From positions 1 to 64,000 of IMG/VR virus record IMGVR_UViG_3300046534_001374: 64,000 nt of DNA; one strand, given 5' to 3'. Origin of the DNA: a virus. Below are positions 18,291-41,514 of the stretch, piece after piece. The stretch's first letter is position 1; every line of letters starts with the position of its first letter. The position numbers and the translations under genes are program-made. A model generated the notes under the pieces. That model saw only the letters and a program-made list of their open reading frames with translations. It ran no database searches and was not told the DNA's origin.

Positions 18291-18367
18291 TGGCAGGACC
18301 ACTCAGAATCGAACTGAGACGAGACAGAGTTTTGGAGACTCCCGCTCTACCATTGAGCTATAATCCT
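18291..18367 (-). tRNA. tRNA-Trp(CCA)
   Basis: Cloverleaf; anticodon loop CT-CCA-AA; encoded CCA end. Confidence 0.92.
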
Positions 18368-18368
18368 G

Positions 18369-18656
18369 TTATATTTTTAAAAAGTGGTATTCTTCTATAT
18401 TTCTATGTTCCTCTTCTGTCCAAATATTTTTAAGTCTATAAACATGATTGTTCCAAAAGAAGGGTTTCGCTTCGATCCATTTCTTACTTTCAAATTCGAA
18501 AACTTCTAAAGTCATAGGAGTATCATAAATAGTTTCTGGAACCAAACATTCTCTGAATGCTCTTTTGGTGTTTTGATCCAATTTAACCCAAGGAGTTTTG
18601 TTGGATAACATATCAGGAACCCAATCACACCAACAAGTATATTCTATATCGTTCAT
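18369..18656 (-). CDS. Hypothetical protein
   Basis: 95-aa ORF between tRNA genes. Confidence 0.6.
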   Translation of the reverse strand: MNDIEYTCWCDWVPDMLSNKTPWVKLDQNTKRAFRECLVPETIYDTPMTLEVFEFESKKWIEAKPFFWNNHVYRLKNIWTEEEHRNIEEYHFLKI

Positions 18657-18724
18657 ATTAGGTTATAAATTTATCTGGTCTTATTGGTTTTTTGGCAGGG
18701 ATCATTGACTTGATACAACATATT

Positions 18725-18797
18725 TGGTCAGGCGAGAAGATTCGATACTTCATCTCCCACCTCCAACGGTGGGCGCATTAACTTATGCTATCTCCTG
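18725..18797 (-). tRNA. Atypical tRNA-Pro(TGG)-like
   Basis: C1-G72/A73 acceptor, CCA end, 8-nt anticodon loop CGTTGGAG, short D loop. Confidence 0.6.
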
Positions 18798-18798
18798 A

Positions 18799-18882
18799 AG
18801 GTGCAGCGGGTGGGTAACGCACCCACACAGGCCGAAGCCCACAGATTTACAATCTGCTTATCTCACTTATAACAGCCACTAC
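18799..18882 (-). tRNA. tRNA-Tyr(GTA), atypical D and T loops
   Basis: GCAGA-TTGTAAA-TCTGT arm, long variable arm, ends CCT. Confidence 0.7.
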
Positions 18883-19000
18883 ATGTTCGAGATGGTTATA
18901 TGTCCGGTGACTTATCAGCCAGCCCAACAACAAGCCCCATCTCTATATAACGCATCATACACTCAACCCGATATCAAGTCAAGCACTGTTTTGAATTATT

Positions 19001-19087
19001 TGGTGCAAGAGGAGAGATTCGAACTCTCTATTCCCGAAGGAAGTGGGATTACAATCCACCGCAACACGCCATCGTTGCCGCTCTTAC
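19001..19087 (-). tRNA. tRNA-Tyr(GTA)
   Basis: Loop TT-GTA-AT, long variable arm, TTCGAAT, CCA. Confidence 0.9.
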
Positions 19088-19093
19088 ATATTG

Positions 19094-19288
19094 TTAATGA
19101 TATTCTATGATCTCGTCTTCGTGTAGATCGTAAATCTCAAGATCGGCATATTTTAGTTTTACGTGTTTCTTAAACGATTTTGATCCTTTGAGGTTTTCTA
19201 AAGTGTTGAAATCTGCTACAAAATTTTCCATCCCTCCTGCGGAGGTTTCTTCGTAAGGTAGGCTGAATAACCAGTAGCGTTTCTTCAT
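19094..19288 (-). CDS. Small protein, paralog of 21473..21718
   Basis: KRYWLF...AGGM...F.T.E motif shared; own TTGACA promoter. Confidence 0.7.
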   Translation of the reverse strand: MKKRYWLFSLPYEETSAGGMENFVADFNTLENLKGSKSFKKHVKLKYADLEIYDLHEDEIIEYH

Positions 19289-19331
19289 GTCGTTATAGTA
19301 ACACCGTTTCTCAGGATGTCAATGTTTATTT

Positions 19332-19406
19332 TGGAAGCGCATGAAGGAATCGAACCTTCTTTTTTCGGATCAAAACCGAAAGTAATAACCAGTATACGAA
19401 TGCGCC
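19332..19406 (-). tRNA. tRNA-Gln(TTG)
   Basis: TTCGG-TTTTGAT-CCGAA arm; CCA. Confidence 0.92.
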
Positions 19407-19476
19407 GTATTTTAAAGTTTATAGGGCTGGATACAACATCCGTGCTTCAAAGGAGCATATTAGCTCTCCTATAAAA

Positions 19477-19553
19477 TGGTCACGGCGACAGGAATCGAAC
19501 CTGCGACATCTGAAATCCAAACTCAGCATTCTGCCACTATAATAATCCCCGTG
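19477..19553 (-). tRNA. tRNA-Pro(TGG)
   Basis: CTGAG-TTTGGAT-TTCAG arm; C1-G72, A73; CCA. Confidence 0.85.
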
Positions 19554-19715
19554 TTTTTAACATGGAACTTCTACACTAAAATATAAACTACAATTAAGAC
19601 ACCTATAAGAATCTTTATAATCACTCCCATTTTCTACCGATTCAACATCGGGGTGAACTTGGGCTTCTTTATCGGGATCTTCTTTAGTGCATACTTTACC
19701 AGCTTTCATAATAAA

Positions 19716-19787
19716 TGGTCGAGGGAGTAGGATTTGACACCCACATCGCCACCTCTACAGTGGTCATTTTGCTTAAACTATCCCTCG
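19716..19787 (-). tRNA. Atypical tRNA with Pro-type acceptor and non-canonical anticodon loop (TGTAGAG)
   Basis: CGAGGGA/TCCCTCG-A-CCA; same architecture as 18725..18797. Confidence 0.55.
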
Positions 19788-19790
19788 ATA

Positions 19791-19868
19791 TGGTATAGGT
19801 GGAGGGATTCGAACCCTCGATCTCTCGCCCCCAAAACGAGCGTCATAGCCAAACTAGACCACACCTAT
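19791..19868 (-). tRNA. tRNA-Pro(TGG)
   Basis: CTCGT-TTTGGGG-GCGAG arm; CCA. Confidence 0.9.
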
Positions 19869-19992
19869 ATGTTGAGAATAATACGTCTGTCTAACGCTAG
19901 AGCCATTACTTGGTTCACTCGGTTTGGGTGCTTACCACATCCATTACGCCGACTCTCTGTGTGGTCTCTCTCACACCACTACTATTATTTAA

Positions 19993-20078
19993 TTCATATG
20001 GAAGGATTCGAACCTCCGGTCCCCGTTAAGGGACACCAGTTTTTTAAATCAGTTGCTTTAAGCCACTCAGCCACATAC
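19993..20078 (-). pseudogene. Degenerate type-II (Ser/Leu-like) tRNA, anticodon undetermined
   Basis: D arm GGCTGAGTGGCTTAAAGC, long variable arm and T arm intact; anticodon arm mispaired; no CCA. Confidence 0.55.
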
Positions 20079-20351
20079 AAAATCATTTACAATTAAAATT
20101 CACACAATTTATCAAACTCTTCAGTTTTCCTATAAATCTTACACTCTGACAAAGCTTTACATACTCGCCTCAAAGCTTCCACATTTGGTCCGATCATATT
20201 GTCGATAAAGGCTCTTCGTGTGGTCTCTCACACCACTACTATTAGTATTACTACAATCTTCAAATATTACAAGAGAAAGTTGCAACTTTCTCAAGCAGTC
20301 CTTCATTTATTCGGATGAGCCTGAAGTCAGCATTCTCGCTTGAAGACTTTA

Positions 20352-20924
20352 TTAAAAATTAATACCCTTGTATAACAAGGAAATAGGTAAGTTCCACATA
20401 GGAACATGACATCTGAAACCATTCGAAGGATCTACGTCACCTTTATCTACAAATTTAGCTTTCTCAAAGAATTCTTTTGATGATATGAAACCACACAACC
20501 ACAATTTTTTAAGGTTTTTATATTTTACGTTTACGCCACTACCCGATTTAGATCCATAAGTTATAGATGCAAACGCATATATTTCTGGTTTTTGATGCAA
20601 GCTAGTTTTTGCAATGGATACCTCATAATTTAGTCTCGGGTCAACCGTTCTTCTTTTGGTTTTAACCTCAATAGTTTTCCCATTAAACTCTAAATCATGA
20701 TTGTATTTTTTATACCCTTCATCACATGAAACGACATCAGCACCTACATGTGATGCTATTGCTGCTTCCGATAAGTAGCCAGCCCTATTACCTTTACCCG
20801 AAGTTATAGAGTTATTCAAAACTCCAAGTTCTTTTGATTTTTTAATAGCATCTTTCAACATCCAAGTTTTTATATCTAAAGTTTCCATTAGATATAAAAT
20901 ACCATGTGTCATGGGCTTTTTCAA
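20352..20924 (-). CDS. PD-(D/E)xK nuclease-like protein
   Basis: E...HDL...IEVKTK motif. Confidence 0.55.
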   Translation of the reverse strand: MKKPMTHGILYLMETLDIKTWMLKDAIKKSKELGVLNNSITSGKGNRAGYLSEAAIASHVGADVVSCDEGYKKYNHDLEFNGKTIEVKTKRRTVDPRLNYEVSIAKTSLHQKPEIYAFASITYGSKSGSGVNVKYKNLKKLWLCGFISSKEFFEKAKFVDKGDVDPSNGFRCHVPMWNLPISLLYKGINF

Positions 20925-21151
20925 ATTAATTCTTCAAAATCTCTCAAAAATCTTTTACTCTTCATTCTAGAAAAATCAATTTCACTTTCAACTGAATTGG
21001 CCCAACGGTCAAAGTCAGTATCACTGATATGAAGAATATTACCTATAATCCGAAAATGCCTACTTTTGTATGTCTTAAGGGTATAGTCGGATTTGTCGAA
21101 TTTCAAATCGTGATTTGCTTCCAACGTTTCTACTACTTCTTCAGTTGTCAT
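20921..21151 (-). CDS. Hypothetical protein
   Basis: 76-aa ORF with TTGACA-17-TAAAGT upstream. Confidence 0.65.
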   Translation of the reverse strand: MTTEEVVETLEANHDLKFDKSDYTLKTYKSRHFRIIGNILHISDTDFDRWANSVESEIDFSRMKSKRFLRDFEELI

Positions 21152-21211
21152 TACCCCTGAACTTTAGCATTCAAAATCGATTGTGTCAACAATCTTTTAA
21201 CTTTATTTTAT

Positions 21212-21259
21212 AGCGACCGTCCTGCTTTTCAGGGGAACACGAATTTTAATCTCGCCGCT
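21212..21259 (-). ncRNA. Conserved post-attenuator structured RNA, copy 1
   Basis: AGCGGC-GAGATTAAAATTC-GTGTT-CCCCT-GAAA-AGCAGG-ACG-GTCGCT; three copies in the window with covariation. Confidence 0.85.
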
Positions 21260-21268
21260 TCTGTCTAT

Positions 21269-21349
21269 AAAAAAACCCTAACCGAATGAACGGGTAGGGT
21301 CAAGAAATATTGTAATTTAGTTTATCAACTACACACAATTTCTAGACCC
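21269..21349 (-). promoter_or_regulatory. Attenuator 1: antiterminator overlapping an intrinsic terminator
   Basis: Terminator ACCCTACCCG/CGGTTAGGGT plus T run; competing GGGTCTAGAAAT/ATTTCTTGACCC helix uses the terminator's ACCC. Confidence 0.85.
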
Positions 21350-21400
21350 ATCCATCGGTGGATAGGGTTGTTGCCATTGTTGCTGGAAGATGTTCTTCAT
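21329..21400 (-). CDS. Leader peptide 1, MKNIFQQQWQQPYPPMDGSRNCV
   Basis: Manual translation; 10 consecutive Gln/Trp/Pro/Tyr codons; promoter TTGAAA-16-TATAAGTA upstream. Confidence 0.85.
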   Translation of the reverse strand: MKNIFQQQWQQPYPPMDGSRNCV

Positions 21401-21472
21401 TACGTTTTTACTTATACCACATGTTTGCACTTTTTCAAGGAAATTGTGAATTATTTTAATTGGAGTTAAATC

Positions 21473-21718
21473 CTAAGCCCTCTTCACAACTTCCCCAACA
21501 TACGAATCATAGATATGGTAATCGTCTGAACCATCATATTCTTTCACACTACCCCAAAGTTCAGAACTTGTTAATTCTTCTATAGTATCAAATCTACCTT
21601 TAAGGTCATCCATACCACCCGCAGCCTCATAGTCATTAAACGCAAACAACCAGTATCGTTTTACGTTATTACTTCTTTCAGTTATCATATTATTATAATA
21701 TGTGTTGAATTTTCCCAT
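21473..21718 (-). CDS. Putative internal head protein, paralog of 19094..19288
   Basis: Extra N-terminal MGKFNTYYNNMITE before the shared domain. Confidence 0.65.
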   Translation of the reverse strand: MGKFNTYYNNMITERSNNVKRYWLFAFNDYEAAGGMDDLKGRFDTIEELTSSELWGSVKEYDGSDDYHIYDSYVGEVVKRA

Positions 21719-21732
21719 ATTACTACTTATGT

Positions 21733-22440
21733 TTAATTTGACACAAACTTAGGAACCGACCCATTGTAATTTGTGTCGATATTTACAACGTCATCGTCAT
21801 CACAAGGTCTTGGGTTGATCATGTATAAATTAGACTCTAATACTTCCACAGGTGATTCTGTGAAGAAGAACACTGCTCTATCGCAACGACCACAGGAAAA
21901 TTTATCATTCACCATGCGGCTAACCTTTGCGTCATCCGACAACTCATCAAACTCACCACCATATTTGGCATGAGCAGATTGTCTTGTTGCGTTATCGGCA
22001 AATTCAGGATTGTCGTAATTTGGTGTTCTGCTGCGAGATTTAATATACTCCTTAACTTTAAAGGGATTGTATGTAATTGGCTCGTATGGTCTCGAACGAA
22101 TCTCTTCGATGATCTCATCCATTGTTAGGTCGATATCATCAACCTTACCATATACTAGCGATTGCACACTTTTAGTATTCTTAGCGATAATTGTTTTCGT
22201 GGTATTTTGTGCAATATAAAATTTACAGTCATCCAGAATCAATCCTTTAGTTCTGAATTTATCGCCATCGGGTCTCACCAAAACCTTATTTCCTTTTTTG
22301 ACAGACCATTGCCCGTTATACTTTCCACCCTCAAGAACGTAGTGAACACCAACGATCTCATTTTCTAGATATTGTGTATCTGGCGAAAATTCTTGGAGTA
22401 ATGTCGATCCAATCGACTGTAAGGTTTTTTCGAAATTCAT
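21733..22440 (-). CDS. Hypothetical protein, putative internal head protein
   Basis: N-terminus MNFEKTLQSIGSTLLQE. Confidence 0.6.
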   Translation of the reverse strand: MNFEKTLQSIGSTLLQEFSPDTQYLENEIVGVHYVLEGGKYNGQWSVKKGNKVLVRPDGDKFRTKGLILDDCKFYIAQNTTKTIIAKNTKSVQSLVYGKVDDIDLTMDEIIEEIRSRPYEPITYNPFKVKEYIKSRSRTPNYDNPEFADNATRQSAHAKYGGEFDELSDDAKVSRMVNDKFSCGRCDRAVFFFTESPVEVLESNLYMINPRPCDDDDVVNIDTNYNGSVPKFVSN

Positions 22441-22442
22441 TA

Positions 22443-22712
22443 TTATCTAGGTTTAAATTGTCCTAAAAGCTCGCCAACTTCGAAAAGATTAGCACCTTTT
22501 CTACCTACTCTACGAACGTTCCAAACATTGTTTTCACTGTCCCTAACTGATTGGACCCCGTGAGCAGACTGGAATCTAACTCTTTCTCTTTCCGCTAAAG
22601 GTCTGACAACTCTTTTAGAAGGGTATTTGATTAGGTGTTCCCTCTCCCATGCATGGATAGATTCCTTTATGATGGTGTTTTTAATTTCTTCTAATTTGTT
22701 GTCGAAGCTCAT
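22443..22712 (-). CDS. Hypothetical protein, putative internal head protein
   Basis: N-terminus MSFDNKLEEIKNTIIKE; TAATTA-N5-ATG. Confidence 0.6.
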   Translation of the reverse strand: MSFDNKLEEIKNTIIKESIHAWEREHLIKYPSKRVVRPLAERERVRFQSAHGVQSVRDSENNVWNVRRVGRKGANLFEVGELLGQFKPR

Positions 22713-22723
22713 ACTATTAATTA

Positions 22724-23110
22724 TTATTCTACTGTCATTAAACTGAAACTATAAGGTCTGATGCCACTAATCTCAAAATCCAATCCCAATTTATAATCCA
22801 ACTTATCAATAATTTCACCGATATCGTATCTCCATTCTTCCTTTGCGTTTTTTAAAAATTCATCATAGGAATATCTGGCATTTTTCCAACCTTCTCTTGT
22901 AGGTGTTTTTCTATTATAACCAACATTAATGGTTTGTCCGTGTGTCATGAAAACATTAATCTCATCATCATCCATATGATCCTGAACTAATGCGACTATA
23001 TCTCGTTCCATATCAGGAGTAATCTCACCTTTCTTTCTTAGTGAGGGTTCATCCCGATAGAAGGTATCTTCCGATAAAATTCCAGAAATGCATTGACCAA
23101 ATTTAGTCAT
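22724..23110 (-). CDS. Hypothetical protein, putative internal head protein
   Basis: N-terminus MTKFGQCISGILSE. Confidence 0.6.
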   Translation of the reverse strand: MTKFGQCISGILSEDTFYRDEPSLRKKGEITPDMERDIVALVQDHMDDDEINVFMTHGQTINVGYNRKTPTREGWKNARYSYDEFLKNAKEEWRYDIGEIIDKLDYKLGLDFEISGIRPYSFSLMTVE

Positions 23111-23115
23111 ACTAC

Positions 23116-23932: not shown

Positions 23933-23933
23933 T

Positions 23934-24230: not shown

Positions 24231-25406
24231 TTGAAAAATTGTCAAATAAAAGTAATTTTTATATATTGTTTTACTTGTCGTCGCGCAATATATAAGGTTA
24301 TGATGGCGCTGATAAGTGTATTTTACTCTTGGATTATATCTTGTTTAGATAAATTGATATTACGAATTTTCGGACACACCACAAATAACGGTTCTGGCGC
24401 GGGAGATAATGACGGCGGCTATTATACCGATTATAAGTTGCTTCGAGCTAAAAAGGATGTAATCGGTGTCGGCCAGCACAGAACTGGTTGGCCTTGGGTT
24501 TTTAACAATCTATCCATTTACGAATCCGTAGACGGTATTTTATTCGATGATTTTCTTGAACAAAATTTTTGTTATAAACCAATCCCCGACATCTATAGAG
24601 AGCCTTGGATTGCAATTTTCCACCACCCCAAAAATATCCCACTTTTTGGAAATTATAAAGAAAACCTAAATAGAGTTTTCGAAATGGAAGAGTTTAAAGA
24701 AAGTTGTAAAGAACTCAAAGTAGCTATCGCGCTTTCCGACGAACTGGCTGAATGGCTCAGAGAAAAATTAGATTGTAAAGTTGTATCTTTGAAACACCCA
24801 ATCGGACTTGAATGCAACCCCCAGTGGGATATTGAAAAATGGAATAAGGATAAACAAGCGTATCAAATTGGATTTTATCTGAGAAACACTCGATTGATTG
24901 AACAGATCCCCAATGTTGATGATATTGCATTCAACAGACTGTGGTCGGACATGACTTGGTTGAAAAACTATGATACAAAGGTTTCCAAATACTGGTCTAA
25001 CCATGGCGAAACATCTTTCGATTTCGAAAGTGAAAACTATTTTAATACAAGATGTGGTTATAGACTAGCCGAAGATCATAATATTAACTTTGTTCTACCT
25101 TCCCGATATGATGAAATCTTAACGTCTGGTGTTGTGGTTGTGGAGTATTTTGAATGTTCAGCATCGAATGTTATTCTTGAATGTATCGCTTCAAACACCC
25201 CGATCATTGTAAACCGTATATCTGCAACTGTCCAATATCTTGGAGAGGGCTATCCTCTGTTCTTCGACCATCCTGAAGAGATTCCTGATCTATTCGCTAA
25301 AGTGGCAGAAGCTAATGCTTACTTGAAGACCATGGACAAAGAAGATATTAAAATTGACACCTTCGTCCAAAATATACTCAAAGAAGTAAATCAGATTAAA
25401 AGATAA
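24231..25406 (+). CDS. Glycosyltransferase-like protein (true start probably ~24300)
   Basis: GT-B-like C-terminus SASNVILECIASNTPIIVN...YLGEGYPLFF; adjacent to a sulfotransferase. Confidence 0.55.
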   Translation: MKNCQIKVIFIYCFTCRRAIYKVMMALISVFYSWIISCLDKLILRIFGHTTNNGSGAGDNDGGYYTDYKLLRAKKDVIGVGQHRTGWPWVFNNLSIYESVDGILFDDFLEQNFCYKPIPDIYREPWIAIFHHPKNIPLFGNYKENLNRVFEMEEFKESCKELKVAIALSDELAEWLREKLDCKVVSLKHPIGLECNPQWDIEKWNKDKQAYQIGFYLRNTRLIEQIPNVDDIAFNRLWSDMTWLKNYDTKVSKYWSNHGETSFDFESENYFNTRCGYRLAEDHNINFVLPSRYDEILTSGVVVVEYFECSASNVILECIASNTPIIVNRISATVQYLGEGYPLFFDHPEEIPDLFAKVAEANAYLKTMDKEDIKIDTFVQNILKEVNQIKR

Positions 25407-25409
25407 AAT

Positions 25410-26066
25410 ATGAAATCCAAATATACAATTGTCTGCGGAAGTAGGAGTGGTTCGACTCTTCTTTGTGATTTATTAAAATCAACCAAAAGAGCGGGCGATC
25501 CTCAAGAGTTTTTTAACGAAGAACTTATTCAGGATTTCGGAAGATTTAATAAAGGAGATGGATATGTTGACGGTATCATTAATGCAACAAAAACCGAAAA
25601 TGAAGTTTTTGGTGTTAAGGTTGTCGGGTGTTTTGACCAATTGGAGGGTTTACTTGAAAGTAAACTTAAACTAACACACTACGTTTACTTAGAAAGAGAA
25701 AACAAAGTTGCCCAAGCCATCTCCAGATATAAATCTTGGCAAACCAATAAGTGGCATAGTAATACGCCGCTTGATGTTGATTATTCTTACGGAGATATTA
25801 AATGGTGTTATGATGACATCTTAGCGGAGGATATTTTCCTACAAAAATTCATCATAGGAAAAAATGCTCTGCGAATTTCATACGAGAAAGATCTCTTAAA
25901 CAATAGAGAACAAACTGTGAGGTGCATTCTTAACCATCTAGGAGTTAGCAGCAAGGATCTACCGGAACTCAAAACAGAACGAGTTAAGATTTCAAACTAC
26001 GCATCCAAGGAAATGGAGAAGCGTTTTAAAGAGGAATTAAAGACTAAGCAGATTTCCTCTGTTTGA
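25410..26066 (+). CDS. Stf0-family sulfotransferase
   Basis: RSGSTLLCDLL, GDPQEFFN, LERENKVAQAIS and SYE motifs. Confidence 0.88.
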   Translation: MKSKYTIVCGSRSGSTLLCDLLKSTKRAGDPQEFFNEELIQDFGRFNKGDGYVDGIINATKTENEVFGVKVVGCFDQLEGLLESKLKLTHYVYLERENKVAQAISRYKSWQTNKWHSNTPLDVDYSYGDIKWCYDDILAEDIFLQKFIIGKNALRISYEKDLLNNREQTVRCILNHLGVSSKDLPELKTERVKISNYASKEMEKRFKEELKTKQISSV

Positions 26067-27593: not shown

Positions 27594-28247
27594 ATGAAGC
27601 AATTAGGGTGTCATAACTGTAGTAATTTGTATGATGTTAATTCCGATCAATGGAAGGCATATAGATATAATTTCAAAAAGAAAGGTGTGCGACATTTTTG
27701 TTCTGAACAATGTAGGGAGGAAGTTCGTGGTTATTCCAAACCCGTAACATGTAAACAATGTAACACATCTTTTAATAAAGAAAAGAGTAGAATTGAAAAA
27801 TCGAAAAATAATTTTTGTTCTAGTTCGTGTAACGCTACTTACAACAACACCCACAAAACAAAAGGAACCAGACGTTCCAAATTAGAAGTATATCTTGAGA
27901 AACGATTGACTGAAATTTATCCCGATCTTGAAATTTTATACTCAGATAAAACTACAATCAAATCAGAATTGGATTTTTACATCCCATCCTTAAACCTCGC
28001 ATTTGAACTGAACGGTATTTTTCATTATGAACCAATTTATGGTAAAGATAAATTGGAGAAAATTCAAAACAACGATCATCGAAAATTCCAAGCTTGCTTG
28101 GAACAAGGGATTGAACTTTGTATCATCGATAGTTCTGGTCAGAAATATTTCAAAGAATCAACTTCTCAAAAATACCTTAACATTATTACAAATTTAGTTG
28201 ACTCCAAATTGGAGTCATCCAAGACAGACTACGTGGAAGTATTGTAA
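27594..28247 (+). CDS. Putative free-standing homing endonuclease (Zn ribbons plus Vsr/DUF559-like nuclease domain)
   Basis: CxxC...FCS repeats, SKLE and ELDFYIPSLNLAFELNGIFHY; inserted antisense within the tRNA cluster. Confidence 0.8.
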   Translation: MKQLGCHNCSNLYDVNSDQWKAYRYNFKKKGVRHFCSEQCREEVRGYSKPVTCKQCNTSFNKEKSRIEKSKNNFCSSSCNATYNNTHKTKGTRRSKLEVYLEKRLTEIYPDLEILYSDKTTIKSELDFYIPSLNLAFELNGIFHYEPIYGKDKLEKIQNNDHRKFQACLEQGIELCIIDSSGQKYFKESTSQKYLNIITNLVDSKLESSKTDYVEVL

Positions 28248-28331: not shown

Positions 28332-28382
28332 TTCTTATTGATTTGAATATAACTCACCTTGATCGGTTTGTCAATCTTATTT

Positions 28383-28791: not shown

Positions 28792-28839
28792 AGCGTCCGT
28801 CCTGCCCGAAGGGGGATCACGAATTTTAATCTCAACGCT
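28792..28839 (-). ncRNA. Conserved post-attenuator structured RNA, copy 2
   Basis: AGCGTT-GAGATTAAAATTC-GTGAT-CCCCC-TTCG-GGCAGG-ACG-GACGCT. Confidence 0.85.
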
Positions 28840-28847: not shown

Positions 28848-28913
28848 AAAAAAGCCTTACTCGTTAAAGTAAGGCAAATTCAATCTTAGATTCTAAAACA
28901 AATATTACCTTAC
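28848..28913 (-). promoter_or_regulatory. Attenuator 2: antiterminator overlapping an intrinsic terminator
   Basis: Terminator GCCTTACT/AGTAAGGC plus T run; competing GTAAGGTAA/TTGCCTTAC helix begins at the leader stop codon. Confidence 0.88.
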
Positions 28914-28984
28914 GGAAGAGTGGTATCCTCTCCGTGTTCTACTACGACTGTTGTGCCGTGGTTGAAGTTAGTAACGTTGTTCAT
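28910..28984 (-). CDS. Leader peptide 2, MNNVTNFNHGTTVVVEHGEDTTLP
   Basis: Manual translation; 14 consecutive His/Gly/Thr/Val/Glu/Asp codons; promoter TTGATT-16-TATAAATA upstream. Confidence 0.88.
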   Translation of the reverse strand: MNNVTNFNHGTTVVVEHGEDTTLP

Positions 28985-29039
28985 GTTTTTATTTATAGCA
29001 GGTCTTGATAAGAAATCAAGAACTTTGTTGATTTATTTT

Positions 29040-29115: not shown

Positions 29116-29119
29116 GTTT

Positions 29120-29203
29120 TGGTGGACCACAAGAGAATCGAACTCTTTTAACTTTAATGCTATCTTGCAAGGATAGTGCAACACCCATGTTACCATGCAG
29201 CCC
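29120..29203 (-). tRNA. tRNA-Ala(TGC) with extended variable region
   Basis: CTATC-CTTGCAA-GATAG arm; G3:U70; CCA. Confidence 0.85.
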
Positions 29204-29214
29204 TTTGATGTTTT

Positions 29215-29244
29215 TATTTATAGCAAACTACACCAATTTGTCAA
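29215..29244 (-). promoter_or_regulatory. Promoter for the Ala/Arg(TCG) tRNA pair
   Basis: TTGACA-N13-TGC-TATAAATA, same layout as the three leader promoters. Confidence 0.75.
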
Positions 29245-31008: not shown

Positions 31009-32259
31009 TTAAACAGAACATTCGATTAAGTATCGAATATTAACTTGCGCGTTGTCATAAACAATAAATTCATCATTATGTAGACCAGTATTTCTAGCTA
31101 GTGCTGTGATGCTGTCAAATCCTCTTGGTGGTGATCCTGTTCCTCTTGCGAGATTGGTTTTACCCATTGCGAAATCACACACGAAGAGCCAAGCTCCATC
31201 ATTAGATGCGCCTTGCCCCCATCGTCCGAGACTGTATCCCAGACTTTTAGATGAACAGTTTGCGCCATAAACTCCATTACCAAACATCTTACCAGCAATC
31301 CTAGCAGAAGAAGGTGGTGCGATAGAGAGACCTGATTTAAAAATTGAAAGGCAATTCGCAATTCCAGTTCCGTGGTAATATTGTTCCACATTTCCCCAAC
31401 CTTTATTGTCGAAGGACTTATCCATCTCACCTAAAGTTACTTCATAAATATTAGCAACTTTAACATTACCATAATGATGCATAGACTTTTTGGTTTTATT
31501 GAATTCGTCTTCCAACCTTTTATAAATCGATTTATCTGTGAGAGGTTCTACCGAAACATCAAATACCTTTTCTTCAGGCTCATCATTTCCTTTGTCATCC
31601 TTTTTGGTGGTCGCAGATTTAACGCTAACCTCTAAAGAATCTAGGAGAGCTTTCTGTTTCTTAATTCCGTCTAGATTTGCGAAATTAGAATCTACAAAAC
31701 TCTGAACTTTTCTCCCTACATTCTGAGGAACGATTTCGAGGAAATTGCAAGCGTAATTATAGAATGTTTTACAACTCTTATCTTTAAGAACAAACATCTT
31801 ATCCAGAAGTTCACTTGCTTCAATAAGGCCATCGCCAGTTACAATACCGAGAGGTGTTTGAAACAACCCACTGGAGGAGTTGAAGGTAATTTGAGTGTTG
31901 GCTGTAATCTGGTGGATATTGGCTTTAGACAAACGCGAAATAAGCTTCTCAGCGAGCGTTGAGGAAGTTTTGATTTGATTCCTTGCGAGTTCATGAACAG
32001 AACCCGAAGGGACGTTAGAAACGCTTACAGACTCAGAGAGGGTCTTTGTTCTAACGTAACCCTTCTTCTCTTTGGATTTAATTTTAGATCTTAGCTTACT
32101 TTCGCCTTGCCACGATCCTTTTTGTGGATTGGCATTTCCGACTCTGCCCCAACGAGCATCCCAGTGACCATCTTCATAGAGATCCACTTCATAAAATTTA
32201 TTATTGTTAGCGACGATGGTGACGCAGATCAATCTGACTGTTTCTTTAATTTTGGACAT
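31009..32259 (-). CDS. WGR-domain PARP-like ADP-ribosyltransferase
   Basis: NNKFY...WGRVG (WGR); catalytic H-Y-E triad in YHGT, GKMFGNGVY...KSLGY and NDEFIVY. Confidence 0.92.
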   Translation of the reverse strand: MSKIKETVRLICVTIVANNNKFYEVDLYEDGHWDARWGRVGNANPQKGSWQGESKLRSKIKSKEKKGYVRTKTLSESVSVSNVPSGSVHELARNQIKTSSTLAEKLISRLSKANIHQITANTQITFNSSSGLFQTPLGIVTGDGLIEASELLDKMFVLKDKSCKTFYNYACNFLEIVPQNVGRKVQSFVDSNFANLDGIKKQKALLDSLEVSVKSATTKKDDKGNDEPEEKVFDVSVEPLTDKSIYKRLEDEFNKTKKSMHHYGNVKVANIYEVTLGEMDKSFDNKGWGNVEQYYHGTGIANCLSIFKSGLSIAPPSSARIAGKMFGNGVYGANCSSKSLGYSLGRWGQGASNDGAWLFVCDFAMGKTNLARGTGSPPRGFDSITALARNTGLHNDEFIVYDNAQVNIRYLIECSV

Positions 32260-34866: not shown

Positions 34867-34975
34867 CGGTGCGCCCAATCAGATTCGAACTGATAACCTA
34901 GCCTTTATCCACGTAACACACTAAGATCAGTATGTTACGAAAGAGAAGCTTACTCTACCCTTGAGTTATAAGCGC
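34867..34975 (-). tRNA. tRNA-Ile(GAT) interrupted by a 34-nt hairpin insertion
   Basis: Removing 34910..34943 restores AGCTT-CTGATAA-AGGCT. Confidence 0.75.
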
Positions 34976-35073: not shown

Positions 35074-35080
35074 TTAATTT

Positions 35081-35120
35081 GGTATTTTACAGGTCTACCT
35101 GCTTCTGACTATACCTAGCC
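35081..35120 (-). ncRNA. Inter-tRNA pseudoknot element, copy 1
   Basis: GGCT-AGGTAT-AGTC-AGAA-GCAGG-TAGA-CCTGT-AAA-ATACC; second copy at 39829. Confidence 0.7.
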
Positions 35121-35126: not shown

Positions 35127-35204
35127 TGATGCGAGAGTTGGAATCGAACCAACGACACAACTATCTTCTCGATAGTTTGCTCTATCCAATTGAGCTATCT
35201 CGCA
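35127..35204 (-). tRNA. tRNA-like RNA with extended anticodon stem, identity undetermined
   Basis: Canonical D and T arms; AACTATC-GAGAA-GATAGTT arm. Confidence 0.6.
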
Positions 35205-35958: not shown

Positions 35959-35984
35959 TTTGTGATTGTTGGTTGTTGTTATTA

Positions 35985-36070: not shown

Positions 36071-36072
36071 GT

Positions 36073-36148
36073 TAGTAGTTTCCCCCAGATTCGAACTGAG
36101 AAACATCAGTTATTAACCGACTGCTTTACCTAATTTGCATAGGAAACT
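36073..36148 (-). tRNA. tRNA-Ile(AAT)
   Basis: GTCGG-TTAATAA-CTGAT arm; 3' end A-CTA. Confidence 0.75.
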
Positions 36149-36151
36149 ATT

Positions 36152-36238: not shown

Positions 36239-36311
36239 ATACCGTTGTTTTGTCAGACTGGGACAACGAGAAACCCTTTACATATTCATCTACCACTGGT
36301 AGCGAACTAAG

Positions 36312-36893: not shown

Positions 36894-36936
36894 ACATCTA
36901 CTTATCTGTTACACACTACTGGTAGCGAACTAATTC

Positions 36937-37203
36937 TTATGGAAAGATCAAAGCAACTTTTCCGCTTTCGTGTTCTATTTTAAATTCTTCCCACTCTACT
37001 TCATCATCAAAACCAGCGTCATCGGCAGACCAATTTGGGTCGTATAGCTGGGCATCCCAACCAGAACTACCTTTAACATAAAAACATTCGGTATGGACAC
37101 CCGCAATAGTTTCATAACCATTACCTTCGGCATTCTTTTGGAGGATGATTTCCATATCGTCAGGGATATCTTTAATTTGTTCTTTTAGTTTTCCAATCGT
37201 CAT
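36937..37203 (-). CDS. Hypothetical protein
   Basis: MTIGKLKEQIKDIPDD...AEGN small acidic protein. Confidence 0.65.
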   Translation of the reverse strand: MTIGKLKEQIKDIPDDMEIILQKNAEGNGYETIAGVHTECFYVKGSSGWDAQLYDPNWSADDAGFDDEVEWEEFKIEHESGKVALIFP

Positions 37204-37456
37204 TATTTTATATTAACATTCCGATTATACTTTTCAAGTGTTTCTATAAAATGAATCTCACATTCGGACTATACCGCTCACATACATCGTAGACTTGAGA
37301 CCAATCTACGTGAGTTTTGAATTGTCGGAGATCAAGCCGACTCACATTAAATTTAAACTAGGTTAGCACGACACACTTTAGTTTTACGAACCACGACATC
37401 GTGCTGTCTCAGTCCACTTATGCGATCCCTATCTCAGGGGTATCCACCGTTTAAAT

Positions 37457-37529
37457 TGGTAGCTCGTCCGAGAATCGAACTCGGCTGGAAAGCATATGAA
37501 ACTTTCTACTTCACCTGAAGTAACGAGCA
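37457..37529 (-). tRNA. tRNA with CAT anticodon (Met or Ile2)
   Basis: AAAGT-TTCATAT-GCTTT arm; short D arm; CCA. Confidence 0.78.
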
Positions 37530-37532
37530 GTT

Positions 37533-37790
37533 TTAACCTGCATTAAAAGAACTACAAATAATTGTGCCTTCTTTTTGTCTTTGGTTTGCTTTACCTATAC
37601 ACTCAACTGTAATTGAATTCAGATCAGATGTCCAACCACAATTCCGATTGTGTGACATATCAGTGTCTTTATAGAATTCGTGATTAGGGTAATAAGTAAG
37701 TGCTTTTTGTTTTGATTTTGAAACTACGACAAAGGAATCATAACAGTCGTAACTTTTATTTTTATCTTGTTGGAGTAAGTAAATGTTCAT
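37533..37790 (-). CDS. Hypothetical protein
   Basis: YDCYDSFVV...CSSFNAG pattern. Confidence 0.7.
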   Translation of the reverse strand: MNIYLLQQDKNKSYDCYDSFVVVSKSKQKALTYYPNHEFYKDTDMSHNRNCGWTSDLNSITVECIGKANQRQKEGTIICSSFNAG

Positions 37791-37958
37791 GTTGGTATAC
37801 TACCGTGCTAATGAGAATTTGTCAAGCCAGTTTCTAAATTTATTCTCATCTTCGGTCAACCTAGAATCCTTAAAACATATGAAGCCCATACTCGTTTCTC
37901 ATCGAGTAATAACTCTAACGTATCTTCTGTATCAAACTCCAACGCTTCATATTTTGCA

Positions 37959-38228
37959 CTATAAATTCTCTGATATCTTAGGGGTTATGGCGGGAGGAAT
38001 CGGGACTTGAATCACCTTTGACTTGAAGTAGTTTGTTTTACCACAAACCACACAATCCCCTGTCCAATAGTCTCCATCTCTTTGAGTTGAAAATTGTTTT
38101 ACCTCATCCCCCTGTTCCGAATAGTGTTTTACCTCATCTTCTTCTGCCTCTAATTCAGACTTACATTTGTTGCAAGTGCATGTATATACAGTTTTGGAAA
38201 TATGCGTTCCTCTTTTGATTACTTTCAT
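37959..38228 (-). CDS. Zinc-ribbon hypothetical protein
   Basis: CNKC...CVVC motifs. Confidence 0.65.
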   Translation of the reverse strand: MKVIKRGTHISKTVYTCTCNKCKSELEAEEDEVKHYSEQGDEVKQFSTQRDGDYWTGDCVVCGKTNYFKSKVIQVPIPPAITPKISENL

Positions 38229-38277
38229 ATTGAATTGGTAGTGATGAATAACTCCTTAAAAAGCTAGGAGTATAGTT

Positions 38278-38367
38278 TGGCAGACTAGCATAGCATCGAA
38301 CTATTACCCCATCTCTGACGCACTATGCTTTTCAAGAGCATTTGAGGAGCCGACCTCAGACTAGTCC
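38278..38367 (-). tRNA. tRNA-Ser(TGA)
   Basis: ATGCT-CTTGAAA-AGCAT arm, variable arm, G73, CCA. Confidence 0.85.
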
Positions 38368-38371
38368 ATTT

Positions 38372-39034
38372 TTAAATCTTTTTGATATACATTTGCCCCT
38401 TAATATTTTCGGGAACTCTCATTCCATACGTCATACTAAGAAAATCTCCCGAAAAATCATTAGGATGCATATACTTTATTCTGTGGATAAAATTCTTAAT
38501 GTAAAATTTGATACCAATACCGTCAATACTAACTCTGCATTCACCAATTCTATTCGGCTCTATCGCAAAGGTGGTTTTAATATCAGGATCAAATTGGCTA
38601 ACTATAGTATATCTTCCCGCATTCAAAAGGTTGAATATAATTCTCTTATGGATTTCTCTTTCTATCACAGGTAAAGCTCTATCGAACTTATTGTCACCAG
38701 AAGAAATTCTCCTGTTGCACATTTCCATACCGTCCACAATAAAGTCTGTGGTCATTTTGGTTTCGACATATGGTGCAAATACCACGCTATCCTTCAGATC
38801 TCGGGATAACATGCTGACAACATCATTCTGGTCTGTATAGTCTACGCGAGGAAGACAACTAGTGATGTTTGCCATACTTTTGGTTGAGTTGATTAAATCG
38901 ACCCACAAACCATAATCAAAAAATTTCTTGTGACTGAATATGGGTGACGGTTTGACACCGCCAATATTCAGTTTAGAATATGTTACTACTGGAGTAGCGA
39001 GGAGTAGTGTTGATAAAAAGGTTCGTTTTTTCAT
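38372..39034 (-). CDS. Hypothetical protein with weak gp23-like segments and signal-like N-terminus
   Basis: MKKRTFLSTLLLA; VVFAPYV, EREIHKRII and MTYG segments. Confidence 0.55.
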   Translation of the reverse strand: MKKRTFLSTLLLATPVVTYSKLNIGGVKPSPIFSHKKFFDYGLWVDLINSTKSMANITSCLPRVDYTDQNDVVSMLSRDLKDSVVFAPYVETKMTTDFIVDGMEMCNRRISSGDNKFDRALPVIEREIHKRIIFNLLNAGRYTIVSQFDPDIKTTFAIEPNRIGECRVSIDGIGIKFYIKNFIHRIKYMHPNDFSGDFLSMTYGMRVPENIKGQMYIKKI

Positions 39035-39040
39035 AAATGT

Positions 39041-39184
39041 ATGTTGTTTGATCCTAGTAAGGAGGAGTTACAGGAAAAAATTTCTAGTGGGCTACCTTTA
39101 ACTAAAATTGGTCAGTATTATGGTGTTTCGGTTAATGCTATCCGAAAACGTTGTAAAAAACTACAAATAAGTTTCAAAAGGTAG
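39041..39184 (+). CDS. Stand-alone HTH / homing-endonuclease remnant (47 aa)
   Basis: PSKEEL...TKIGQYYGVSVNAIRKRCKKL. Confidence 0.6.
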   Translation: MLFDPSKEELQEKISSGLPLTKIGQYYGVSVNAIRKRCKKLQISFKR

Positions 39185-39186
39185 AT

Positions 39187-39262
39187 TGGCTCTAGATTGT
39201 GGTAACGCTCCACACGCTCTCTTCTTAACAGGAAGGCCCGTTCGCTTGCTCGGTCATCTAGA
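39187..39262 (-). tRNA. tRNA-Asn(GTT), atypical T loop
   Basis: Loop CT-GTT-AA; T loop AGCGTTA; G73; CCA. Confidence 0.8.
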
Positions 39263-39265
39263 ATT

Positions 39266-39340
39266 TGGCAGTATAGGAAGGACTCGAACCTTCATTTTAT
39301 GGATCAACAATCCACGGCATTGCCATTATGCTACTATACT
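39266..39340 (-). tRNA. tRNA-Asn(GTT)
   Basis: GTGGA-TTGTTGA-TCCAT arm; CCA. Confidence 0.85.
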
Positions 39341-39456
39341 ATGTTTATAAGCCATAAGGTCTAATCTTTCGATCTACAGGGGTAGCGTAGTGATCATCTG
39401 GTATGCTGGCCAGACATCGTTATCCTTATTGTTGTTTAAGCGTATGCTTATAAAAT

Positions 39457-39532
39457 TGGTCCGCTAGGAGGGAGACGATCCCCCAACCTTGTCGTTAAAA
39501 GCGACCTGCTCTGCCTATTGAGCTACTAGCGG
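39457..39532 (-). tRNA. tRNA-Lys(TTT)
   Basis: Loop CT-TTT-AA; CCA. Confidence 0.88.
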
Positions 39533-39631
39533 TTTAAAAATTGTGTCGTATGGGTATCGATCCCACTTATTACCTAACCTCCACTTTTCACAGCTTTGGA
39601 TGCCACCTGATACGACCCTTAAAATATGACT

Positions 39632-39707
39632 TACTCTAACCTCTGGAATTGAACCAGAGTCTGCCGCTTTATAAGCCGCCGTAATTTCCAATTATACCAA
39701 GTTATTT
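39632..39707 (-). pseudogene. Degenerate tRNA, anticodon ATA or TAT
   Basis: D and T arms intact, GCGGCTTATAAAGCGGC arm, broken acceptor stem. Confidence 0.5.
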
Positions 39708-39749
39708 CTGTCCACAACCAAAGAGCAAATAACTCTCTCAGATCATGTT

Positions 39750-39824
39750 TGAAGTCAAGAGTTAGATTCGAACTAACGACACTCCCTCAATTAAAGGCTG
39801 CTCTAACCACTGAGCTATCTTGAC
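39750..39824 (-). tRNA. tRNA-like RNA with malformed anticodon loop, paralog of 35127..35204
   Basis: Canonical D and T arms and acceptor; GCCTT-TAATTG-AGGGA arm; 3' T-TCA. Confidence 0.6.
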
Positions 39825-39828
39825 TTAT

Positions 39829-39868
39829 GGTATTTTACGGGTCTACCCGCTCCTGACTATACCTAGCC
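39829..39868 (-). ncRNA. Inter-tRNA pseudoknot element, copy 2
   Basis: 37/40 identical to copy 1, with a compensatory A-T to G-C change in the hairpin. Confidence 0.7.
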
Positions 39869-39870
39869 TT

Positions 39871-40043
39871 TGGTGTCCCATGTGGGGATTCGAACCCTAC
39901 TCACATTATATCCTTTGTCAATTACTAATGCATTTTCTTTGACACTCTATTTCCTGTGGGCCGATACTTCATCTTACGACTTCTTCGGGCACACTTCTTA
40001 CACTACGTTTAAGTAGTAGCTCTAGCCATTGAGCTAATGGGAC
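39871..40043 (-). ncRNA. tRNA-like RNA with ~95-nt variable-region insert
   Basis: GTCCCAT/ATGGGAC-A-CCA, D arm, ACTAC-TTAAAC-GTAGT arm, long insert, GGGTTCGAATCCC. Confidence 0.7.
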
Positions 40044-40113
40044 TTTTAATTCTCATAACAAATACAAGTCAACATGAAATTGTAATGTTGTAAAGGTTTA
40101 TCTTAACTTAATT

Positions 40114-40206
40114 TGGAGCGGAGGAACCGATTCGAACGGCTATCTGTTCTCAGTTGTATAAGGTTAGGCTTGGATTCGCCCTGTGCTGCCATTACACCAC
40201 CTCCGC
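40114..40206 (-). tRNA. Atypical tRNA-Gly(TCC)-like RNA
   Basis: GCGGAGG/CCTCCGC-T-CCA Gly-type acceptor; 8-nt loop GAATCCAA; unstructured long variable region. Confidence 0.55.
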
Positions 40207-40215
40207 TTTTTACTG

Positions 40216-40608
40216 TTACCAGTCAATATTTATAACGTATTCTCCTGCTTCGATCAAGCCCTTTTTGAATAAATCGTCAAAGAGTATTTCGATGTTTGGA
40301 AAGAAATTCCGTTCCCAAAACATTTCAAGAGTCCAAGCAGAGTCGGATTCTGAAAGTTGTTCTGTGGGATCTCGCTCAAGCCAGTCTTTCAAAGAAACAG
40401 AACCATACTCATTTTTAATGATATCCTCTAGGACATATCCTTCTAGGACATATCCTTCTTCAACATCTTTCACAGGAACTTTTACATATTGGGTTCCTCT
40501 TGCTCTACAACCAAATTGTTGCTGAAAGCTAAAAGGTCTTTTGTAAGTTTCCTCGATGAAATCGTCCAAATCTGAGACTTGGACATATTTTATGGTTTCG
40601 TATTTCAT
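40216..40608 (-). CDS. Hypothetical protein
   Basis: 130-aa ORF ending GEYVINIDW. Confidence 0.7.
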   Translation of the reverse strand: MKYETIKYVQVSDLDDFIEETYKRPFSFQQQFGCRARGTQYVKVPVKDVEEGYVLEGYVLEDIIKNEYGSVSLKDWLERDPTEQLSESDSAWTLEMFWERNFFPNIEILFDDLFKKGLIEAGEYVINIDW

Positions 40609-40632
40609 GTTTTATGTTTTATGGTTTAAATT

Positions 40633-40929
40633 CTATTCGAAATACCGTTCGTTGTCAAGAGGAAACCATCTGTTTCTCACTGACTTGGCGTAGTCTTCAA
40701 CACTACCCTCAAACTCATCGAACACTGTTTTGACTCGGCCATCTACTGAATCACCGTATGAATGGAACAATTCTAGAAACTCGATTGCCCTTCCGGCAAC
40801 ACTAATATGGCGTTTAAAATCACCTACTGGTGGATTCTTCTTCGCGCAGAAATCATCTACTGTTGCCAGTAGGCATTCTGCGATGTAAATTGCTGCCTTC
40901 GTCGGGTTGCATACGTTGATTCTCTTCAT
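40633..40929 (-). CDS. Hypothetical protein
   Basis: 98-aa ORF with upstream TTGACA promoter-like sequence. Confidence 0.65.
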   Translation of the reverse strand: MKRINVCNPTKAAIYIAECLLATVDDFCAKKNPPVGDFKRHISVAGRAIEFLELFHSYGDSVDGRVKTVFDEFEGSVEDYAKSVRNRWFPLDNERYFE

Positions 40930-40973
40930 GTCGTTAAGGTATATTGTTTGGGTTGTTTTGTCAACGTTTAAAT

Positions 40974-41048
40974 TGGTTACAGGAGAAGAAATCGAATCTT
41001 CGTAGAAAGGGATATGAACCCTATCAGGGAACCAACACCCTTCCTGCT
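40974..41048 (-). tRNA. Initiator tRNA-fMet(CAT)
   Basis: 1:72 mismatch; three G-C pairs closing the TTCATAT loop; CCA. Confidence 0.85.
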
Positions 41049-41129
41049 ATTTGGAGATTAACAACAAACTCAATCATTGTCAACCTTTATCAACAGGAAA
41101 AATCATTTTTGTTTCTCCTGTCTTTCTAT

Positions 41130-41178
41130 AGCGAACGTCCTGCCATTTCTGGGGGCACCGAATTTTAATCTCTCCGCT
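41130..41178 (-). ncRNA. Conserved post-attenuator structured RNA, copy 3
   Basis: AGCGGA-GAGATTAAAATTC-GGTG-CCCCCA-GAAA-TGGCAGG-ACG-TTCGCT. Confidence 0.85.
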
Positions 41179-41184
41179 TGAAAT

Positions 41185-41257
41185 AAAAAACCCATTTAAC
41201 TGTTAAGCTAAATGGGTGTCGTATTTCTAAAATCTTTATTTTATACTTAACACACCC
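41185..41257 (-). promoter_or_regulatory. Attenuator 3: antiterminator overlapping an intrinsic terminator
   Basis: Terminator ACCCATTTAGC/GTTAAATGGGT plus T run; competing GGGTGT/ACACCC helix from the last leader codons. Confidence 0.8.
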
Positions 41258-41324
41258 GCAGGGAATTACTTCTCTTGCAAAAGAGAGATCTTCCTAAATT
41301 TATGTTTGACATAATGTGTTTCAT
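41247..41324 (-). CDS. Leader peptide 3, MKHIMSNINLGRSLFCKRSNSLRVC
   Basis: Manual translation; 20/25 codons specify Met/Lys/Ile/Ser/Asn/Leu/Arg/Phe; promoter TTGCAA-16-TATAAGTA upstream. Confidence 0.8.
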   Translation of the reverse strand: MKHIMSNINLGRSLFCKRSNSLRVC

Positions 41325-41514
41325 TGGCTTTGTTGTTATTACTTATAGCAGAGGTTTGCTCTTTTGCAATTAAAATGTTAATTTTTTTAAGTTGGTGTTA
41401 GAGCGGGATTTGCACCCACATATTGTAGCTATATCAATATTCCACATACTACTTCAAAATCACTCACTTTCTAGAATTAAGAGCAATTTTTGCAGTGGAC
41501 CTAAACTTTTAAAT

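Follow-up and report, generated by a model that had tools for sequence, protein, structure and literature searches.

Here, we describe three paralogous cassettes on the minus strand of the genome of an uncultured virus, IMG/VR virus record IMGVR_UViG_3300046534_001374, each of which heads one block of phage tRNA genes and interspersed open reading frames (ORFs) and, judging from its sequence, is probably a trp/ilv-type ribosome-mediated (leader-peptide) transcription attenuator with that block as its output. The cassettes, which were read directly from the sequence, lie in the first 64 kb of the 139.6-kb record (estimated completeness 65%), the whole stretch analyzed here and referred to as the window. 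Homologues of rIIA, baseplate-wedge, ribonucleotide-reductase, and T4 Y07C proteins are present in the window and mark it as belonging to a large T4-like phage. The cassettes possess every sequence-level hallmark of a leader-peptide attenuator, and the computational predictions of this reading, as far as they could be tested, all held.

Organization of the cassettes

Each cassette consists, in order, of an extended -10 promoter, an ORF of 23-25 codons, an antiterminator/terminator pair, and a conserved 48-nucleotide (nt) structured RNA. An earlier description of the window made from the sequence alone (hereafter the sequence-only reading) had reported the same cassette three times on the minus strand, with a promoter of the form TTGnnn-N13-TGn-TATAARTA before each leader, a leader ORF of 23-25 codons, an intrinsic terminator, and a conserved 48-nt RNA behind each terminator, and every one of these elements was found in its place. 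The cassettes and the tRNA blocks behind them are as follows (lengths of leader peptides in amino acids, aa).

Cassette 1
21409-21438, minus strand: promoter (-35 TTGAAA, 13 nt, TGG, -10 TATAAGTA)
21329-21400, minus strand: leader ORF L1, 23 aa; codons 6-15 comprise Gln x5, Trp, Pro x3, and Tyr
21276-21299 (21269-21299 with the U-tract), minus strand: intrinsic terminator, -10.7 kcal/mol
21212-21259, minus strand: 48-nt RNA, copy 1, a conserved structured RNA
18291-20081, minus strand: tRNA block A; confident tRNAs Pro(UGG) x2, Gln(UUG), Trp(CCA)

Cassette 2
28990-29019, minus strand: promoter (pattern match)
28910-28984, minus strand: leader ORF L2, 24 aa; 14-codon run of His/Gly/Thr/Val/Glu/Asp
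28854-28875 (28848-28875 with the U-tract), minus strand: intrinsic terminator, -11.1 kcal/mol
28792-28839, minus strand: 48-nt RNA, copy 2, with a UUCG loop
26951-28331, minus strand: tRNA block B; Glu(UUC), Asp(GUC), Gly(UCC), Thr(GGU), Thr(UGU), Val(UAC), Gly(GCC), His(GUG)

Cassette 3
41340-41369, minus strand: promoter (pattern match)
41247-41324, minus strand: leader ORF L3, 25 aa; 19 of the 24 non-start codons are for Lys/Ile/Met/Ser/Asn/Leu/Arg/Phe
41190-41217 (41184-41217 with the U-tract), minus strand: intrinsic terminator, -12.6 kcal/mol
41130-41178, minus strand: 48-nt RNA, copy 3, with a GAAA loop
29040-40206, minus strand: tRNA/ORF block C; Lys, Asn, Met, Leu x2, Phe, Ser(GCU), Arg x2, Ile(AAU) x2

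The promoter form TTGnnn-N13-TGn-TATAA(G/A)TA has four matches in the window compared with 0.23 expected; three precede the leaders, each with an A/T-rich stretch upstream, and the fourth (29218-29244, minus strand) is followed by neither a leader nor a terminator. Every leader is a short ORF with start and stop codons, located behind a promoter and ahead of the presumably regulated genes, with homologues in four other phages, and in all three cassettes an intrinsic terminator separates the leader from those genes. The three cassette terminators are the only strong minus-strand terminators within 18-42 kb.

The distance from the -10 box to the ATG is 7, 10, or 17 nt across the three leaders. 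In L1, the ATG lies 10 nt past the -10 box and lacks a Shine-Dalgarno (SD) sequence, and in L2 it lies 7 nt past the box, so that the mRNA is probably leaderless. None of the leaders has an SD sequence, and their A-rich 5' ends and A-rich codons 2 and 3 fit SD-independent initiation. An SD-type motif (GGAG, GAGG, or AGGA) was found upstream of only 2 of the 43 ORFs of at least 150 aa in the window, against a background of 9.6%, and translation initiation in this phage is, on this sequence evidence, SD-independent. The missing SD sequence was considered as an argument against leader translation and rejected, given that SD-less genes, and hence SD-less leaders, are normal in this phage. The low SD use hints at a host that itself makes little use of SD sequences, though the promoters look sigma70-like.

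Leader codons match the downstream tRNAs

The confident tRNA sets of blocks A, B, and C have no member in common, in agreement with the essentially non-overlapping amino-acid sets of the sequence-only reading, and each leader is rich in the residues of its own block. Among non-start residues, 9 of 22 in L1, 16 of 23 in L2, and 19 of 24 in L3 belong to the leader's own block, and far fewer to the other blocks. When all leader residues were pooled and dealt out anew, the 44 own-cluster matches observed among 69 non-start residues, compared with a mean of 22.0 expected, were reached in none of 200,000 trials (p < 5e-6). The signal is confined to the ATG-defined frame: 61% of the residues match in frame 0 compared with 22% and 24% in the other two frames, which argues for a triplet reader, that is, a ribosome.

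As an empirical null, 263 other short ATG-initiated ORFs of the window were scored in the same manner, and none reached the matched fraction or the run length of L1 (10 consecutive codons) or L2 (14 codons). The match extends to isoacceptors, with all eight tRNAs of block B having the codon they read in L2. Control codons cognate to the downstream tRNAs are thus enriched in the leaders beyond chance, and the claim that the leaders match the tRNA sets behind them is substantiated.

Mutually exclusive helices overlap the leader ends

In all three cassettes, one strand of the terminator also belongs to a predicted antiterminator, positioned such that a ribosome at the stop codon would disrupt it; this arrangement is weakest for L3.

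21297-21369, minus strand: L1 switch region, trp-like, from folding and read from the sequence
28869-28913, minus strand: L2 antiterminator, 9-bp helix; duplex -11.8 kcal/mol, p 0.005
41216-41257, minus strand: L3 antiterminator, GGGTGT (41252-41257, last codons) with ACACCC (41216-41221); duplex -11.2 kcal/mol, p 0.024

The 5' strand of the L2 antiterminator (28905-28913) contains the stop codon, and its 3' strand (28869-28877) is the 5' arm of the terminator. In L3, ACACCC engages the three basal G-C pairs of the terminator. The L1 switch has strand 1 over the Pro-Tyr-Pro codons and strand 2 over the Met-Asp-Gly codons (21345-21355), and strand 2 has two alternative partners, strand 1 and the terminator 5' arm (GGGTC with GACCC, lengthened by an imperfect hairpin). 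The same layout recurs in the L1 homologue of a related phage, G001 (L022:14103-14230), and its likeness to trpL explains why G001 and the window have kept those residues in common even though the peptide has otherwise diverged.

When leader RNAs were folded with the 3' arm of the terminator withheld, the 5' arm found its partner in the stop-codon region in 6 of the 7 cassettes folded, from this and related phages. The pairing of a pre-set stop-codon window with the terminator arm was further compared with that of 3000 random genomic windows, resulting in p values from 0.0003 to 0.09 across five cassettes (Fisher combined p 7.6e-6); for the two L1-type leaders (W_C1 and G1_g), the switch was read from the 3'-arm-withheld folding and the sequence. 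Across the homologues, the terminator stems vary in sequence and the complementary strand of the leader varies along with them, so that pairing is kept. The sequence-only reading had placed the antiterminator 5' strand over the last leader codons; it indeed overlaps the stop or last codons and changes together with the terminator arm.

Homologous cassettes in related phages

At the nucleotide level, none of 50,697 deposited phage genomes matches the window, and cassette 1 gave zero matches in blastn searches of these records in both near and distant modes. Contigs encoding an identical copy of a 186-aa protein of the window (P0001) were uninformative on variation, being 99.1-100% identical to the window. 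Patterns of the L1 start, searched in IMG/VR and JGI metagenomes, returned only G001 itself and one unrelated ORF. The 190-aa ORF behind cassette 1 was rejected as an anchor, its homologues occurring in unrelated phages without tRNAs. Relatives with cassettes were reached via the PARP-like gene inside block C and via the 48-nt element.

Phage G001 (PARP identity 61%) has two cassettes, with a shuffle p of ~2e-5 for both leaders together. One leader (L022:14103-14177) is an evident homologue of L1 that keeps the Gln/Pro/Tyr run and lacks the Trp codon; the tRNAs directly behind it are those for Tyr, Pro, and Gln, with Trp absent. The Trp tRNA of G001 is found after its other cassette; here the leader (L022:5992-6084) contains two Trp codons, and 22 of its 29 residues are accounted for by the nine downstream tRNAs (Trp, Ser, Cys, Val, Asp, Phe, His, Ile, and Met). 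In the L027/L031 phage (PARP identity 69%), a homologue of L2 (L027:11263-11322) has the same leaderless spacing and the 48-nt element; this leader is devoid of His and Asp codons, and its block (Glu x2, Gly x2, Val x2) is devoid of His and Asp tRNAs, the tRNA-His being located upstream, in the preceding block. A 2.5-kb metagenome contig, L041, carries the 48-nt element, a 12-bp antiterminator containing the stop codon, and a leader (L041:972-1028) with Asn x4, Lys, Cys, Glu x2, and Gly x2 that precedes Glu, Asn, Lys, Gly, and Cys tRNAs. In the most divergent case, phage G003 (PARP identity 38%), a tight single array of at least 20 tRNAs lies behind one promoter, one leader, and one terminator; the 36-codon leader (L007:18661-18771) includes 19 distinct amino acids in 35 residues (p 0.004-0.009), and a perfect 9-nt complement connects its last codons to a stretch overlapping the terminator 5' arm.

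Across seven leaders, the true assignment of leaders to blocks is the unique best of 5040 permutations. Both computational checks put forward with the sequence-only reading thus came out in its favor: the permutation test of leader codons against anticodons is non-random, and the search of related phages recovered homologous cassettes in which leader composition co-varies with cluster content. No cassettes were found in G002, L047, or L048. A leader-like ORF at L029:21047 and further scanner matches in L029, L033, L034, and L035 were discarded as false positives located inside a gene.

Proposed mechanism and its alternatives

We infer leader translation, switching driven by ribosome stalling, and the direction of the response as follows. 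A strong early-type promoter would start an RNA that opens with an SD-less or leaderless ORF of 23-25 codons in which the codons of the downstream-encoded tRNAs are overrepresented. With fast decoding, the ribosome would arrive at the stop codon and cover the 5' strand of the antiterminator, the terminator would form, and transcription would end before the tRNA block; in the L1 type, strand 1 would instead re-pair with strand 2, again allowing the terminator to form. If any cognate aminoacyl-tRNA became scarce, the ribosome would stall upstream, the antiterminator would sequester the terminator 5' arm, and the polymerase would read into the tRNA block. The outcome would be negative feedback fitting the phage tRNA supply to the decoding demand, exerted by three multivalent sensors that divide most of the amino acids among them.

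Several observations weigh against this mechanism or limit it. The enrichment of L3 is weak on its own, with 10 of the 263 other short ORFs matching the L3 set as well as L3 does, because this set consists of amino acids with AT-rich codons. L1 and L2 open with Lys/Asn/Ile/Phe codons that belong to block C, and L3 contains His, Gly, Val, and two Cys codons without cognate tRNAs in block C, a Cys tRNA not having been identified in the window; given that the C-like block of L027 holds His and Cys tRNAs, the His and Cys codons of L3 may be relics of an older arrangement. Among the relatives, one G001 leader (d) has two Ala codons and no known Ala tRNA, the L027 leader has five Thr codons and no Thr tRNA in the following 9.6 kb, and G002 and L048 carry tRNAs without such cassettes. 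With respect to the switch, the antiterminator of L3 overlaps only 3 bp of its terminator, and the pre-set duplex window is not significant for L1 and the L1-type leader of G001, both of which miss this narrow window because they are built like trpL. Moreover, control codons within ~13 nt of the antiterminator strand, such as the single Asp codon of L2, would mask that strand if the ribosome stalled on them. Finally, there are many sigma70-like promoters inside the blocks, so the attenuators cannot be the sole route to tRNA expression and would boost it rather than gate it fully. The sequence-only reading had made this caveat, rightly so, as the driving of tRNAs directly from promoters in G002 also illustrates. 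Of the internal promoters it had named, those at 21161-21189 and 28346-28374 were confirmed, and the one near 40960 was not found, the nearby minus-strand matches being at 40630-40658 and 40770-40799.

Three alternative explanations were considered. The attenuators could be real and ribosome-dependent and yet report general translation capacity or the timing of infection, through ribosome availability or transcription-translation coupling, instead of the supply of individual tRNAs, with the codon match a secondary adaptation, for example, toward the best-decoded codons. The two-helix types (L2, L3, L041) would indeed read through by default without a ribosome on the leader, the internal promoters are predicted to provide basal tRNA expression, and some control codons are too near the antiterminator to act in the expected direction. 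We nevertheless consider this explanation improbable because it accounts neither for the enrichment of own-cluster codons together with the depletion of other-cluster codons in each leader nor for the way leader content tracks the gain, loss, and relocation of tRNAs between relatives. Still less credible is the notion that the cassettes are promoter-proximal genes for small RNAs or micropeptides with ordinary insulating terminators and a coincidental or compositional tRNA match. Although the terminators also lie at the 3' end of the preceding block and the match of L3 is just modestly above background, the shuffle p values (< 5e-6 in the window, ~2e-5 in an independent relative), the frame specificity of the match, the maintenance of antiterminator pairing through sequence change, and a peptide that is poorly conserved while its composition follows the tRNAs make this very unlikely.

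The leader triplets are complementary to the downstream anticodons, as would also be expected if the leader RNA sensed tRNAs directly, in a T-box-like manner, by codon-anticodon pairing without translation. However, the triplets lie in one ATG-to-stop frame, the stop codon is inside the antiterminator strand, and a single RNA reading 6 to 10 different tRNAs is without precedent. Furthermore, a cmscan search of positions 17000-43000 at E-values up to 1 detected only tRNAs and chance matches, with no T-box or other Rfam match and neither Stem I with its specifier loop nor the conserved T-box sequence, and we regard direct sensing as the least plausible of the three.

A bolder version of leader-peptide attenuation is possible but, in our estimate, rather doubtful: the attenuators may constitute a codon-resolved sensor of the decodable tRNA pool that induces replacement tRNAs when the host depletes or cleaves tRNAs (by anticodon nucleases or shut-off), with the 48-nt RNA acting as a new cis element, involved in processive antitermination or processing, that marks read-through transcripts, and the odd-loop tRNA-like genes acting as nuclease-resistant variants or decoys. 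The link to anticodon nucleases such as PrrC that the sequence-only reading had drawn finds no support in the evidence presented here.

The 48-nt RNA element

The 48-nt element occurs in exactly three copies in the 139.6-kb record, compared with zero expected by chance, directly after each cassette terminator. Five distinct copies are available: three from the window phage, one from L027, and one from L041. The structure comprises a 6-bp outer helix with two co-varying pairs and an inner hairpin with a conserved CA bulge, the top of which alternates between UUCG, GAAA, and GAGA tetraloops; the outer helix and inner hairpin flank an invariant 18-nt strand. In the alignment, 96% of the cells are paired, compared with 22-56% when the partners were slid.

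The element had no Rfam match at E-values up to 1. The covariance model built from it (R1) matched only the window phage, L027, and L041, the element being absent from G001-G004 and from bacterial genomes. The exact pattern gave one match in IMG/VR, a chance match in a coding region, and four chance matches in GTDB genomes, none of which fit R1. A promoter directly follows the element in cassette 1 and in L041. Owing to its location after the terminator, the element is carried by read-through transcripts only, and our guess is that it serves as a processing or stabilizing site or as a protein- or polymerase-binding (nut/put-like) site.

tRNA blocks and neighboring genes

ARAGORN predicted 28 tRNAs in 18291-40206, every one of them on the minus strand; 23 of these reach the gathering score in Infernal, which additionally detected an intron-like tRNA missed by ARAGORN and a few weak ones. 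ORFs and sigma70-like promoters sit between the cassettes and the tRNAs. Block C is further populated by about 20 ORFs (the PARP-like gene among them), odd tRNA-like genes, and numerous internal promoters. The anticodon loops of several tRNA-like genes are non-standard. In block A, apart from the confident tRNAs, the following were found.

19004-19078 and 18802-18879, minus strand: weak class-II Tyr(GUA)-like genes (Infernal)
19993-20080, 19719-19787, and 18728-18797, minus strand: odd tRNA-like genes

For the gene at 19001-19078, called as Gly(tcc) by ARAGORN, the Infernal alignment instead indicates a weak class-II Tyr(GUA), which corrects the first reading.

Non-standard tRNA-like genes are located at 18728-18797, 18802-18879, 19719-19787, 19993-20080, 35129-35204, 36076-36148, 39637-39704, and 39753-39824 of the window and at 11636-11707 and 15920-15990 of L027. 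They have anticodon loops of 5-6 or 8-9 nt, or G33, and some have GCGUUAC T-loops; anticodons starting with A are found among them (AAU x2 and AUA, along with AUG in G001 and AAC in L027). These genes could be nuclease-resistant variants, decoys, or pseudogenes. A tRNA at 34870-34975 (minus strand; Infernal, 44.6 bits) contains a hairpin-forming 38-nt insertion in the anticodon loop, far below the length of a group I intron. The promoter that lacks a leader (29218-29244) drives a very divergent tRNA-like gene followed by tRNA-Arg(UCG) (29116-29244, minus strand); the divergent gene, missed by both ARAGORN and Infernal, ends in CCA and has the anticodon loop CUUGCAA (UGC, Ala?). A 41-nt repeat with a promoter-like site inside occurs at 35080-35120 and 39828-39868; the copies are 93% identical, and each adjoins an odd tRNA-like gene on the minus strand.

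Block B is interrupted by plus-strand genes (24231-26066 and 27594-28247), namely, a 391-aa ORF, a Stf0-type sulfotransferase, and a 217-aa zinc-finger ORF that lies between tRNA-Glu and tRNA-Asp and may be a mobile insertion. The PARP-like gene (31009-32259, minus strand) encodes a protein with WGR and PARP catalytic domains that has more than 700 homologues (E <= 1e-30) in large phages and, in L027, adjoins a Macro-domain gene. Together with a nearby ADP-ribosylglycohydrolase and a 2',5' RNA ligase/2H phosphoesterase (14865-15758 and 16185-16742), it suggests a set of tools for ADP-ribosylation and RNA repair. The 190-aa ORF behind cassette 1 (20352-20924, minus strand) has more than 100 homologues, with 45-58% identity, in unrelated marine phage contigs and appears to be a widely exchanged gene.

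Comparison with known systems

If the proposed mechanism is correct, the speed of decoding at particular codons (sensor) and the tRNAs reading those codons (output) form a direct feedback loop. Such a loop would account for the regulation of tRNA arsenals in large phages and for the grouping of their tRNA genes by amino acid, and it would show how a virus could adjust translation to the codons it needs or to host attack on tRNAs. The leader would then also predict the downstream tRNAs on incomplete contigs.

As a textbook mechanism, leader-peptide attenuation is familiar from amino-acid biosynthetic operons and a small number of synthetase genes. A full-text literature search found no description of attenuators controlling tRNA genes, and the features that are new here are the tRNA-gene output, the breadth of each sensor (6-10 amino acids, nearly all in G003), and the phage setting. 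The cassettes resemble the enterobacterial leaders (ilvGMEDA, sensing Ile/Leu/Val, thr, sensing Thr/Ile, trpL, hisL, pheL, and leuL) in that a promoter-proximal short ORF rich in control codons precedes mutually exclusive antiterminator and terminator helices, with the stop codon at or in the antiterminator strand. L1 shares the four-strand 1:2, 2:3, 3:4 layout of trpL, and the sensing of several amino acids per leader is shared with the ilv and thr leaders. Unlike their enterobacterial counterparts, the phage leaders are SD-less or leaderless, three sensors divide most of the amino acids, and the genes under control would be tRNA genes rather than those for biosynthetic enzymes, so that the loop would close on tRNA supply rather than on amino-acid supply.

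In the pheST attenuator of Escherichia coli, with its pheM leader, leader-peptide attenuation also acts on a gene of the translation apparatus, in a tRNA synthetase operon; however, a single amino acid is sensed there and a protein enzyme is what is regulated, and neither a tRNA gene nor a phage is involved. T-box riboswitches likewise are attenuation systems that report the state of specific tRNAs and control tRNA-charging genes, but they bind the tRNA directly, without a ribosome, through Stem I and the conserved T-box sequence, neither of which is present in the phage cassettes. With the tRNA clusters of T4- and T5-like phages, the system described here has in common blocks of tRNA genes with small ORFs among them, located in an early region of a T4-like genome; to our knowledge, those clusters have been described as promoter-driven with RNA processing and without codon-matched leader ORFs, the simple layout that is seen in G002.

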